Below, one piece after another: positions 3,687 through 28,225 of a stretch of DNA of 64,000 nt; position 1 is the first letter of the stretch; each line of letters starts with the position of its first letter. Origin of the DNA: Escherichia phage ECBP1; sequence record NC_018854.1; one strand, 5' to 3'. The translations under genes were made by a program, and so were the position numbers. The notes under the pieces were generated by a model, which saw only the letters and a list, made by a program, of their open reading frames with translations, ran no database searches and had not been told where the DNA came from.

Positions 3687-4016
3687 ATGAAAACTTTATT
3701 TAAAGGTATTGCAGTAGCTGCACTGATAGCTTTGGCTCCAAATGCACAAGCTATTGAACCAGAACCAATTTTGGAAGGTGCTCAGGCTTATCTGGACAAC
3801 ACCCATGATGAGTTCGGACAAGGATTCTTCATGGGCAGTATGATCTCTTACATCGAGAACACAAATAACTGTGTTCCAGATGGTATGAAGTATTCAGACA
3901 TTCTACCTAAGATTGCCAAAGTAGTTATTTATGACTCTGCAATCCTCAAACTGAAGAATACATCTCAAATTGTTGTGTACTCAGTACACAAGGCGTATCC
4001 CTGCACTAAATCTTAA
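3687..4016 (+). CDS. secreted/periplasmic protein with cleavable signal peptide
   Basis: N-terminus MKTLFKGIAVAALIALAPNAQA has n/h/c regions and AxA cleavage motif. Confidence 0.5.
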   Translation: MKTLFKGIAVAALIALAPNAQAIEPEPILEGAQAYLDNTHDEFGQGFFMGSMISYIENTNNCVPDGMKYSDILPKIAKVVIYDSAILKLKNTSQIVVYSVHKAYPCTKS

Positions 4017-4050
4017 TCAGTAATCCCATTAGCTTTAGGAGAGTAAGTAA

Positions 4051-5103
4051 ATGGCAAGCATTGACTCCTTGACTGTATGTAATTCACGTCAAGCTCGTAA
4101 CTTTATTATTCGTGCCCTGAAAGCAGGTAACGTACCATTCCTGACTTCATCACCTGGCATGGGTAAATCTGCAATCATTCGTTCTATTGCAGAAGAATTT
4201 GGTATGAAGTTGATAGATCATCGTCTGTCTACTTCTGCCCCAGAAGATCTTTCTGGTCTACCATTCCGTAATGGTGACCGTGCAGAGTTTATTCCATTCG
4301 CTGATTTATTCCCTATTGAAGGGGATGAAGTACCAGAAGGTTATAATGGCTGGCTCCTGTTCCTTGATGAGTTCAACTCAGCTAAGAAAGAAGTAGTAGC
4401 TGCTGCATACAAACTAATTCTCGACCGTATGACTGGTCAGAAAAAACTTCATCCTAATGTGATGATTGTCTGTGCTGGTAACAAAGCTACTGACCGTGCC
4501 ATTGTTAATCCTCTGGGTACTGCAATGCAGTCTCGTGTGGTTCACTTTGAAATGGAACTTAACTTCGACATCTTTGTTGAAGATGTAATGATTCCTCAAC
4601 AATGGGATGAACGTCTGGTTGCATTTCTACATGCTAACCCAGGTTATCTGCATGACTTCGACCCAGCCCATAAGAACAAAACATTCTGTTGCCCTCGTAC
4701 TTGGGACTTTGTTAACAAAGACCTTAAGAATCAGCCGGAAGGTGCTCTTCCTGATGAAGATTCTATCTACTATGCAGGTCACGTTACTGCTGGTAAGGCT
4801 ACAGAATTTGTTCAGTTTACCCAGGTATATAATCGTATGATTACGATTGAGAAGGTAGTCAAAGACCCTATGGGTTGTGCACTACCAGAAGATAACAACC
4901 TGTGTTGGGCTACCGTTAACCATCTAGCTAACAAAACTACTGAAGAGAACTTCGCTGATGTTCTTCAGTACATCGAACGCTTTAAAACGTTCACCCATAA
5001 GATTCTGTACTTCCGTACAGTAGGCAGAACATTACCAGAACTTCAGGCTACTCCTGAATGGCGTAAGGCTGCTGCTAATATCTCTCGTTACATTCACGGA
5101 TAA
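4051..5103 (+). CDS. AAA+ ATPase, MoxR-like
   Basis: Walker A SSPGMGKS, Walker B LFLDEFN; 350 aa; immediately followed by vWA partner. Confidence 0.8.
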   Translation: MASIDSLTVCNSRQARNFIIRALKAGNVPFLTSSPGMGKSAIIRSIAEEFGMKLIDHRLSTSAPEDLSGLPFRNGDRAEFIPFADLFPIEGDEVPEGYNGWLLFLDEFNSAKKEVVAAAYKLILDRMTGQKKLHPNVMIVCAGNKATDRAIVNPLGTAMQSRVVHFEMELNFDIFVEDVMIPQQWDERLVAFLHANPGYLHDFDPAHKNKTFCCPRTWDFVNKDLKNQPEGALPDEDSIYYAGHVTAGKATEFVQFTQVYNRMITIEKVVKDPMGCALPEDNNLCWATVNHLANKTTEENFADVLQYIERFKTFTHKILYFRTVGRTLPELQATPEWRKAAANISRYIHG

Positions 5104-5107
5104 AACA

Positions 5108-6283
5108 ATGAACCAATTTCCTCAGCACACACTTAGTGATGAACAACTCATGCGCGAATATGACCGTATTCAGGCGCAGGCGTTTCTCGGACGCAGTGCT
5201 GCCTTCTTTGGTTCATTACTATGTAGTCTTAAATTCTCATGGAAACGTGAGGATTGTCCCACTGCATGTACTGATGGGATAGAACTCCATTTCAACCCAG
5301 ACTTCTTTATCTGGATGTGTCCAGATGCAAGGGAAACAGTATTAATGCATGAACTATGGCATGTGGCATATCTACATGACATCCGTCGTGGAAGCCGTGA
5401 CCCGGAAGTCTGGAACCAGGCATGTGACCACTTCATTAACCTTCAGTTAGAGGAGGATGGTTACAAGTTCACTGGTATTAATGAAGGCATTTGCAAAGAC
5501 CCTCAATATAAAGGATGGGTCGAAGAAGACATCTACGATGACCTGATGAAGAACCCTCAGAAAAGGCAGAAGCCGTCAGGGGGTGCTGGAGCAGGTCTTG
5601 CTGGCGACATGAAATCCCCCACTTCGGGACAGTCCCAGGGTGCTGTCGTCAACAACGTAGTACGTGCAATGCAGAGCCAGAAGATGGCTGGTGGAACAAT
5701 GCCCGGTAAGGGTGCTGGTCGTATGGAAGAGGTTATTACCCAATTCCTTAAACCAGTGGTTCCATGGCAAGAAGTACTCATGAACTTCTTTACCGACATT
5801 GATGACACTCACTATACGTGGGCCAGACCTAACCGTCGTTACACTGACATTTATCTACCTTCCCTGGAAGATGATGAAGGACGTCTACGACACCTAGCCT
5901 ACTTTGAGGATGTATCTGGTTCTATTAGTAGTGCTGACTCTCTGCGTTTTAACTCAGAGGTTGCCTACGTTAAGAGTCAATTCAATCCTAAGAAGATGAC
6001 CCTAATCACCTTCGACGATGTTATCCAGGAAGAAATAGACATCACTGAAGAAGATACTTTCGAAGAGATTAAGATTACTGGACGTGGTGGTACAAACCTG
6101 GAACCAGTACGCGAATGGATTATTAAGAATAAGCCAACCGCTGCAATCATATTCTCTGATATGTATGTTCGTCCAATGGAAGAATTGCCATTTGATATTC
6201 CTATCATCTGGTGTGTTCTGAATAATCCTAATGCTACCGTACCTTTTGGGGAGGTAGTTCATATCCCTAAAGGAATGAAATAA
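5108..6283 (+). CDS. vWA-domain protein with N-terminal HExxH putative metallopeptidase-like domain (MoxR partner)
   Basis: 'MHELWHVAYLHD' HExxH motif; Gly-rich linker; C-terminal vWA-like region; canonical pairing with upstream MoxR ATPase. Confidence 0.7.
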   Translation: MNQFPQHTLSDEQLMREYDRIQAQAFLGRSAAFFGSLLCSLKFSWKREDCPTACTDGIELHFNPDFFIWMCPDARETVLMHELWHVAYLHDIRRGSRDPEVWNQACDHFINLQLEEDGYKFTGINEGICKDPQYKGWVEEDIYDDLMKNPQKRQKPSGGAGAGLAGDMKSPTSGQSQGAVVNNVVRAMQSQKMAGGTMPGKGAGRMEEVITQFLKPVVPWQEVLMNFFTDIDDTHYTWARPNRRYTDIYLPSLEDDEGRLRHLAYFEDVSGSISSADSLRFNSEVAYVKSQFNPKKMTLITFDDVIQEEIDITEEDTFEEIKITGRGGTNLEPVREWIIKNKPTAAIIFSDMYVRPMEELPFDIPIIWCVLNNPNATVPFGEVVHIPKGMK

Positions 6284-6789
6284 TGGTTGTTAATGGTAAT
6301 TCTCTATATCGTTCATCTCAGTTGCTGGATGTCCCAGACCGTAAGATATCCGAGCATGGTGTAAGCTATGGATTAGGTGAAGCTGGTTATGATATTCGTA
6401 TCAAACAGGATATTACCTTCTATCGCTTATTTGGGTTGATTCCAATGGTGAAAGTCGTTGATGGAGGTCAAGTATCACGCCATCTAGGTAAGTTCGCGTT
6501 GGCATCTGCAATTGAGAAGTTCAACATGTCCCCATCCTGTGTAGCTATCGTTCACGATAAGTCTACATGGGCAAGACGTGCATTATCTGTGTTCAATACC
6601 GTAATAGAACCAGGATGGAAAGGGTATTTGACTCTTGAACTGGTCTATCATGGTCGTAAGAAACTACATATCCCGGCTGGTGCTGGGATAGCTCAAGTAT
6701 TATTTCATCTGGTTCAGGAACCTGCTAATTACAATGGCAAGTATATGAACCAGGAAAACAAACCAGTGGCTGCTAGACCTTCAAAATAA
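6283..6789 (+). CDS. dCTP deaminase / dUTPase-family enzyme
   Basis: 'GLGEAGYDIRI' and 'IEPGWKGYLTLELVYHG' match dCD/dUTPase signature motifs. Confidence 0.6.
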   Translation: MVVNGNSLYRSSQLLDVPDRKISEHGVSYGLGEAGYDIRIKQDITFYRLFGLIPMVKVVDGGQVSRHLGKFALASAIEKFNMSPSCVAIVHDKSTWARRALSVFNTVIEPGWKGYLTLELVYHGRKKLHIPAGAGIAQVLFHLVQEPANYNGKYMNQENKPVAARPSK

Positions 6790-27737: not shown

Positions 27738-28155
27738 TATCGTGAAGGGTTCTGTTAGAATCCTTTGAGATAGGAACTCCTATCATAACCTTTCTTATCT
27801 TAATCTTTGCCGTATGGCACTGACGCTAGGGTTTATGCCCATCCGTCAGGTAGACTATTTTAAGAATGGGTTATCACAGAAAATGTAAAGCAACATTCGG
27901 GTTAATCAATGGCCTCTCCCTATAGGGGCCATTTCTGAATGATAGGCTATATCCCAAAGGTTAGTATCTTTGGGATAAGGCTTCAGATCCCTTATCAAAC
28001 TAACCTCTCAATGTTGAGCATTTTAATCACATAAGCCCCTATATGGGCTGGGTTAAATGTCGGATAGCATAGCTACCTACAGCATCGAATTGTTAGGTCT
28101 TACATGCAACATAGGGTATAAAGGGAGGACTCGTCCCCTCCCTCCTATTATAATG

Positions 28156-28225
28156 GTCGAGGTAGCACGTAGGCATGTGCAGATGGTCGCTACTTCTCTC
28201 GCTGGTTCGAATCCAGCCCCCGACC
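28156..28225 (+). tRNA. tRNA-like element, probably degenerate tRNA
   Basis: 7-bp acceptor (one A-C mismatch), U8-A9, D-arm GCAC/GTGC, canonical T-arm GCTGG-TTCGAAT-CCAGC; anticodon stem pairs poorly. Confidence 0.3.

Follow-up and report, generated by a model that had tools for sequence, protein, structure and literature searches.

Two adjacent genes of Escherichia phage ECBP1 raise the question of how their products work together and on which protein they act. The genes occupy positions 4051-6283 of a 64,000-nt stretch of sequence record NC_018854.1 (this whole stretch is called the window here), and the original prediction had described them as a MoxR ATPase and a vWA protein with an HExxH domain that could remodel or proteolytically process a host or phage complex. 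Computational analysis showed that the two genes are the orthologues of gp24 and gp25 of phage N4, and that they encode an AAA+ ATPase and a protein with a metallopeptidase-like N-terminal domain and a C-terminal vWA domain. This domain identity and orthology are close to certain. The mechanism proposed for the pair, a two-part ATP-driven adaptor-protease, has as a whole about an even chance of being correct.

The pair itself is already known: gp24 and gp25 are N4 core genes, the domains of the second protein stand in Pfam as DUF2201_N and DUF2201, and a couple of a MoxR protein and a peptidase-vWA protein has been described in jumbo phages. New here are the conservation at the level of residues, the assignment of the ATPase to its clade from the predicted fold, the wide range of phages and plasmids in which the pair occurs, and the correction of an HNH endonuclease label.

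Identification of the gene pair and its N4 orthologues

The upstream gene, open reading frame (ORF) A (4051-5103, + strand), encodes 350 amino acids (aa), and the downstream gene, ORF B (5108-6283, + strand), encodes 391 aa; both end with TAA. As originally predicted, they are 4 nt apart, and their coordinates matched the six-frame ORF list exactly. ORF A and ORF B shared 61-62% identity with N4 gp24 and gp25 across 97-100% of their length (ORF B 61%), and matched PHROG 1297 (E 2e-134) and PHROG 1314 (E 6e-145), respectively. The gene order gp24 ("ATPase"), gp25 and gp26 (dCTP deaminase), downstream of the RNAP2 gene, was the same in N4 and in the window, where the RNAP2 subunit gene lies at 382-1599. 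The spacing differed, with 167 nt between gp24 and gp25 in N4 and 4 nt in the window; no essential difference was seen between the two pairs.

The N4-like layout extended to the rest of the window, with ThyX, ORFs of the size of rIIA and rIIB and a DNA-polymerase-sized ORF on the + strand, and a 3,576-aa ORF of the size of a virion RNA polymerase, together with large late-gene-sized ORFs, on the - strand. At the DNA level the region was 93-94% identical to some 55 phages of Escherichia and Shigella; these are G7C-like members of Gamaleyavirus (Schitoviridae), the genus to which the window also belongs. The ORF A and ORF B proteins were up to 98-99% identical to the copies in the closest sequenced phages.

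In the list of Chan et al. (2014), the core set of 14 genes common to all N4-like phages includes gp24 ("unknown") and gp25 ("vWFA domain"), and in N4 both are middle-gene transcripts (PMC4193335). The pair had been assigned to the early region; by N4 homology it belongs to the middle-gene block rather than to a strictly early one (PMC4193335).

In comparison with close relatives, dN/dS was 0.013 for ORF B and 0.05-0.06 for ORF A, which indicates strong purifying selection on both genes. The dN/dS values and the Pfam E-values given below show that the genes and their motifs are not due to chance.

ORF A is an AAA+ ATPase

Pfam AAA was the only family above threshold in ORF A (27.3 bits, E 5.6e-6). 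The Walker A motif or P-loop is SSPGMGKS (residues 33-40; 4147-4170, + strand), Walker B is LLFLDE (residues 102-107; 4354-4371, + strand), and the segment from sensor-1 N144 to S161-R162, a candidate arginine finger, lies at 4480-4536 (+ strand). In an alignment of 90 homologous sequences, P35, G38, K39 and S40 of the P-loop, D106 and E107 of Walker B, and G143, N144, S161 and R162 were all invariant, so that the AAA+ ATPase with Walker motifs named in the original prediction is well founded. The P-loop is slightly non-canonical, with Ser in place of the first Gly of GxxxxGK[ST] in the N4-like clade; PGxGK[ST] was kept in distant phage and plasmid homologues. The Walker B Asp-Glu was kept in most distant homologues, and the AGN...xR pattern was retained in distant homologues as well.

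The MoxR clade (dynein-midasin, MoxR and YifB as well as chelatase) is defined by an insert in helix 2 of the AAA+ core (PMC7159879). The AlphaFold2 (AF2) model of ORF A (pLDDT 92.7) contained a predicted beta-hairpin at residues 70-81 (4258-4293, + strand; strands 70-74 and 77-81), after the helix at 64-68 and before the Walker B strand. The structures nearest to the predicted fold were midasin, dynein, CbbQ and NorQ, and midasin was also the sole PDB sequence match. The curated MoxR-type Pfam profiles missed their cutoffs, with 17.4 bits for AAA_5 (cutoff 22), 13.8 bits for bpMoxR (cutoff 27) and no match for AAA_3, and the NCBIfam search gave no match. Because the helix-2 hairpin and the nearest structures agree while the curated cutoffs were missed, the term MoxR holds only in the broad sense: by its predicted fold, ORF A is a divergent AAA_5-like member of the MoxR clade and not MoxR proper.

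A clamp loader identity of ORF A (PHROG 168, E 1e-5) was rejected, since RFC-type structures scored below those of the MoxR clade and the vWA partner is conserved.

Several close relatives appear to carry group I introns in the ATPase gene, while that of the window has none. In phages PW8 (L009:752-2672) and U1G (L010:559-2493) the gene was split by inserts of about 0.9 kb that bear an HNH ORF. Their 5' and 3' ends were related, and Rfam scored them weakly as group I introns (25.6 bits, E 0.0036). Of the two insertion sites, one follows codon 67, and the other follows codon 105 and directly precedes the Walker B Asp-Glu. Once the inserts were conceptually removed, the ORF again read through for 350 aa and was 96-97% identical to ORF A. 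By their sequences, the inserts appear to behave like introns at conserved sites of a gene that must stay functional.

ORF B combines a putative metallopeptidase domain with a vWA domain

A profile search found both the DUF2201-like metallopeptidase domain and the MIDAS expected in ORF B. Residues 17-253 matched Pfam DUF2201_N ("putative metallopeptidase domain") with E 1.4e-56, and residues 263-386 (5894-6265, + strand) matched Pfam DUF2201 ("VWA-like domain") with E 1.4e-34. The AF2 model was built from 129 homologues (pLDDT 90.1, pTM 0.83), and conservation was read from 271 aligned homologues down to about 34% identity; the percentages for the HExxH site refer to the sequences that cover it.

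In the N-terminal domain, MHELWHVAYLHD corresponds to residues 80-91, and the conserved motif HELWHVAYLH (residues 81-90; 5348-5377, + strand) comprises HExxH and H90. H81 was conserved in 98%, E82 in 97% and H85 in 99% of the homologues, and the motif was present in phage, proteobacterial, actinobacterial, cyanobacterial and Bacillota sequences. H90, 96% conserved, is likely the third zinc ligand, because it is rarely replaced, and recurrently only by Asp (9 sequences), which is ligand-like; D107 (99.6%) and E140 (95%) are alternative candidates. In the AF2 model H81, E82 and H85 lie on a predicted helix (72-87) within a strand-strand-strand-helix topology, and one homologue gave a weak M48 match. 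Four points agree with a putative zincin-type peptidase domain: the motif itself, the fact that it is conserved together with the catalytic Glu, the topology of the model and the Pfam label.

The MIDAS motif DVSGS (D268, S270, S272) lies at 5909-5923 (+ strand), and its remaining residues are T329 (6092-6094) and D351 (6158-6160). D268, S270, S272 and D351 were found in 271 of 271 homologues and T329 in 270. In a profile search, DVSGS aligned with the MIDAS motif of the integrin alpha-X I domain, and the best Foldseek match of the domain was the MIDAS domain of human MDN1 bound to the UBL domain of its client NLE1. The PDB sequence search with ORF B gave no match and the profile search gave only marginal vWA matches. 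By its predicted structure, the C-terminal part of ORF B has a genuine vWA fold of the Rossmann-like alpha/beta type, and its DxSxS...T...D MIDAS is complete. The HExxH motif and the vWA domain that had been read from the letters of the sequence are thus both supported, and both are conserved in orthologues.

The MIDAS was conserved more strictly than the HExxH site. Because 8 homologues lost HExxH residues and all 8 kept a perfect MIDAS, the alignment suggests that the MIDAS adaptor role is the indispensable part and proteolysis an added activity.

A Gly-rich loop of variable length at about residues 150-175 (5555-5632, + strand) was modelled with low confidence (pLDDT 68-77, and below 50 at residues 159-162); any role, such as that of a pore "finger" as in NorD, would be speculative.

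In phage U1G, the annotation divides the gp25 homologue (L010:2501-3675) into ORFs of 167 and 224 aa, the gene being otherwise 95% identical; the split may be a frameshift or a sequencing error.

Distribution of the pair in phages and plasmids

Copies in phages and plasmids were sought by tblastn, and a pair was counted where the two genes were adjacent or within a few kb. Phage records numbered 698 for ORF B and 805 for ORF A, with similar genus profiles, and the ORF B family contained 13,460 representative clusters at E <= 1e-3. At least five phage lineages have the pair, which in the phages inspected never lay outside the non-structural regions; bacterial plasmids carry it as well. Every ORF B motif was retained in very distant copies, in jumbo and rV5-like phages and on proteobacterial, actinobacterial, cyanobacterial and Bacillota plasmids.

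Among phages, the pair lay near thymidylate synthase in Asteriusvirus PBECO4, near DNA polymerase I in Rhizobium phage TM3_14A, and amid thymidylate kinase, phosphohydrolase and RNA ligase genes in Vequintavirinae (e.g., Ro1). It was also present in Alcyoneusvirus phiKp_21, and in the PA5oct-like phage PAC2 a homing endonuclease separated the two genes.

Bacterial and plasmid pairs of an AAA ATPase and a DUF2201_N/DUF2201 protein ("VWA-like domain-containing protein") had the same domains and motifs, with 22-30% identity to the window protein. On Burkholderia conjugative plasmids the order was ATPase, a conserved gene of about 300 aa and the VWA-like gene, directly upstream of type IV secretion system (T4SS) genes; on a Rhodovastum plasmid the pair followed a toprim primase near ParB; and on Synechocystis pSYSA it lay among toxin-antitoxin and defence-type genes. 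An ORF B-type gene was also found on Rhodococcus pBD2, where a nearby AAA ATPase aligned poorly with ORF A, and on a Pontibacillus megaplasmid, where the ORF upstream of the VWA-like gene had matching Walker and sensor motifs. The search of the PADLOC-DB v2 defence models gave no match for ORF B and only a sub-significant DolB match (E 0.006) for ORF A.

The Burkholderia and Rhodovastum pairs thus differ from the phage pair in having a third gene between them. Its copies (L006:6013-6942 and L007:6066-6965, respectively) were 32% identical (E 1e-42) and had no Pfam family, and no counterpart was found in the phage window. The third gene could encode a client or a specificity factor of the plasmid versions.

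The 75-kb Acinetobacter baumannii "plasmid" pRBH2-3 (L008) carried genes for a single-subunit RNA polymerase, toprim, an AAA ATPase and a VWA-like protein. Their layout resembles the left arm of N4-like phages, which suggests that the record is a phage genome of the N4-like type, or a phage-plasmid, deposited under the name of a plasmid.

Gene layout and expression signals

A Shine-Dalgarno sequence, AGGAG (4037-4041, + strand), was read 9 nt ahead of the ATG of ORF A, and the spacer between the ORF A stop and the ORF B ATG was read as AACA (5104-5107, + strand). No Shine-Dalgarno sequence of its own was found ahead of the ORF B ATG at 5108. The 4-nt spacer and this absence suggest that translation of ORF B is probably coupled to that of ORF A. 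The ORF B stop overlaps the ATG of the dCTP deaminase gene (TAATG, 6281-6285), which lies at 6283-6789 (+ strand; Pfam DCD, E 3.8e-16). Between the three genes no convincing promoter-like or terminator-like site was found, as consensus matches were no commoner than in shuffled sequence. Given the short spacing, the stop/start overlap and the lack of such sites, ORF A, ORF B and the dCTP deaminase gene look like one tightly coupled operon.

Directly upstream of ORF A, a 109-aa ORF (3687-4016, + strand) had a clear signal peptide, MKTLFKGIAVAALIALAPNAQA. Some GenBank records label it "Tai4" (a type VI secretion system amidase immunity protein); the ORF had no Pfam or PDB sequence match, so that neither search supports the label, and the function of its group, PHROG 11132, is listed as unknown. 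Farther downstream, ARAGORN called tRNA-like genes at 28155-28226, 28518-28596 and 29299-29373 (+ strand) with the odd anticodons Ala-CGC, Cys-ACA and Ile-AAT, the anticodon positions being off-register (35/36 for two of the three). These calls may be atypical phage tRNAs or false positives.

Proposed mechanism of the pair

All steps of the mechanism were drawn from architecture, conservation and precedent. ORF A would assemble into a MoxR-clade AAA+ ring. The vWA domain of ORF B would be the part that docks on this ring, in the manner of NorD on NorQ and of the MIDAS domain on midasin. The metal at the MIDAS would grip a carboxylate side chain of a client protein, ATP hydrolysis would exert a pull on the client or remodel it, and cleavage would fall to the HExxH(x4)H zinc site of the N-terminal domain. 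The architecture implies, as originally predicted, remodelling or proteolytic processing of a host or phage complex.

The individual parts differ in strength. The conserved pairing and the MoxR/vWA precedents make it probable that the ATPase and the MIDAS adaptor act as a couple. In NorQD, one NorD VWA protein plugs the NorQ hexamer with its vWA finger entering the pore, and activation requires surface carboxylates on the target (PMC9976466, PMC13036017); the general properties of MoxR-vWA couples point the same way (PMC7159879). Proteolysis by ORF B, which is suggested by the conservation of the motif, is slightly favoured over its absence. That the client is not a virion protein, as the gene context hints, is held only tentatively.

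Compared with NorQ and CbbQ, ORF A is extended at its C terminus by a helical region of about 130 aa. ORF B differs from the adaptors NorD and CbbO, which have no peptidase domain, in carrying the HExxH domain, and compared with NorD its vWA domain is compact (about 125 aa), with no long vWA "finger" evident in the model. Midasin/Rea1, a eukaryotic AAA ring with its own MIDAS domain, was the best match of ORF A in both sequence and structure, and its MIDAS domain, which grips the client, corresponds to the MDN1 domain matched by the ORF B vWA domain. Unlike ORF A and ORF B, midasin is a single chain of 5,000 aa with six AAA modules and no peptidase, and it serves ribosome biogenesis.

Several points weigh against the adaptor-protease and the client favoured for it. 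No solved peptidase was among the structural matches of the N-terminal domain of ORF B, vWA matches filling the lists, and about 3% of the homologues lack the catalytic residues of HExxH, which could bind metal for delivery rather than for catalysis. In the literature searched, including DUF2201, COG3864, MoxR/VWA and Schitoviridae, no experiment on any family member was found, and the CRISPRi-ART paper mentions neither phage N4 nor MoxR, vWA or metallopeptidase. Gene position is a weak clue to the client, since N4-like phages encode virion proteins there (N4 gp17; the second structural module of RPP1), and the plasmid copy located immediately upstream of T4SS genes would suit a role in assembly just as well.

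The client and alternative explanations

The client of the pair was judged more likely to be an intracellular protein of the replication (middle) phase than a virion component. This judgement draws on the gene contexts, on expression in the middle phase in N4, on the link to dCTP deaminase and on plasmids that carry the pair but make no virions. Such a client could be a host or DNA-associated protein that both virulent phages and conjugative plasmids meet.

The strongest alternative, though itself unlikely, is that the pair is a chaperone-protease of virion assembly or maturation, which folds or assembles and trims large structural proteins such as the 3,500-aa virion RNA polymerase or tail parts. 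Group 2.2 jumbo phages have the same two-gene "chaperone-cochaperone" architecture of a MoxR AAA+ protein and a metallopeptidase-vWA protein, for which Iyer et al. (2021) proposed virion assembly with peptidolytic processing (PMC7824862). The jumbo copies (PBECO4, 121Q, PA5oct/PAC2) shared 23-36% identity with the window proteins and kept all motifs, the proteins being longer (441 and 474 aa in PBECO4). A MoxR-vWA couple is also used in tail assembly of the Acidianus two-tailed virus (cited in PMC7824862 and PMC7159879). Among phages, the pair occurred only in large virulent ones with complex virions, some virion proteins are encoded near gp24/gp25 in N4-like phages, and the Burkholderia copy stands beside secretion machine assembly genes. 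However, the pair was never inside the structural or late module of the phages inspected but amid nucleotide-metabolism and replication genes, it is expressed with the middle genes in N4 and appears translationally linked to dCTP deaminase in the window, and it occurs on non-conjugative plasmids and in plasmid regions rich in toxin-antitoxin and defence genes, which make no virion or secretion machine. The contexts of the window pair therefore point at least as much to a non-structural role as to the assembly role proposed for the jumbo phages.

Improbable, and weaker than an assembly role, is a chaperone for metal insertion or enzyme activation that acts without proteolysis, like NorQ/NorD, CoxD/CoxE, CbbQ/CbbO and the chelatases, with HExxH holding the metal to be delivered. 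This is the typical job of MoxR/vWA couples, NorQ/NorD and CbbQ/CbbO performing metal insertion or inhibitor release on a defined enzyme; CbbQ and NorQ were the closest bacterial structural relatives of ORF A, the vWA domain of ORF B resembles the NorD VWA domain, and the neighbouring genes encode enzymes (dCTP deaminase, ThyX). Some homologues without the catalytic Glu also keep both His (HQxxH, HIxxH). The Glu of HExxH is the catalytic base of zincins and is dispensable for metal binding, yet E82 was kept in 97% of the homologues, and this conservation makes a pure metal-insertion role less likely. Moreover, the Pfam classification of the N-terminal domain is that of a putative metallopeptidase, and across the phages and plasmids inspected the pair had no conserved neighbour that could be its client enzyme.

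That ORF B is an HNH endonuclease, as RefSeq and PHROG 1314 have it (also for N4 gp25, L001:3998-5140), was rejected at the level of sequence and fold and has virtually no chance of being right, since inherited annotation alone speaks for it, Pfam found DUF2201_N and DUF2201 and no HNH family (the N-terminal part being tested to E 10), and the model predicts a helical domain with HExxH joined to a vWA fold and not a beta-beta-alpha-Me nuclease. The label is probably a propagated mis-annotation, seeded by the HNH homing-endonuclease genes in or beside this locus in relatives.

Implications for N4-like phages and the MoxR/vWA family

The gp24/gp25 pair is among only 14 genes common to all N4-like phages, and its homologues occur also in rV5-like phages, Asteriusvirus, PA5oct-like phages and other large virulent phages. 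One rather speculative extension, considered a long shot, is that gp24/gp25 is an "establishment" weapon common to virulent phages and conjugative or mega-plasmids, in which a MIDAS-targeted, ATP-driven protease removes a specific host protein in the replication phase. Candidate targets are an immune effector and a protein that is bound or cross-linked to DNA entering the cell or being replicated. If true, this would explain why the pair is among the few universal N4-like genes, and the bacterial and plasmid copies amid toxin-antitoxin and defence genes would put the same tool to use in conflict between elements.

Of practical value are the corrected "HNH endonuclease" label, which is widespread, and the residue-level list of sites. 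If the adaptor-protease is real, the pair would add a protease-bearing variant to the MoxR/vWA chaperone family, and knowing the client of such an ATP-driven, targeted protease would bring to light a conserved step of infection, or of plasmid establishment, shared by mobile elements of very different kinds.

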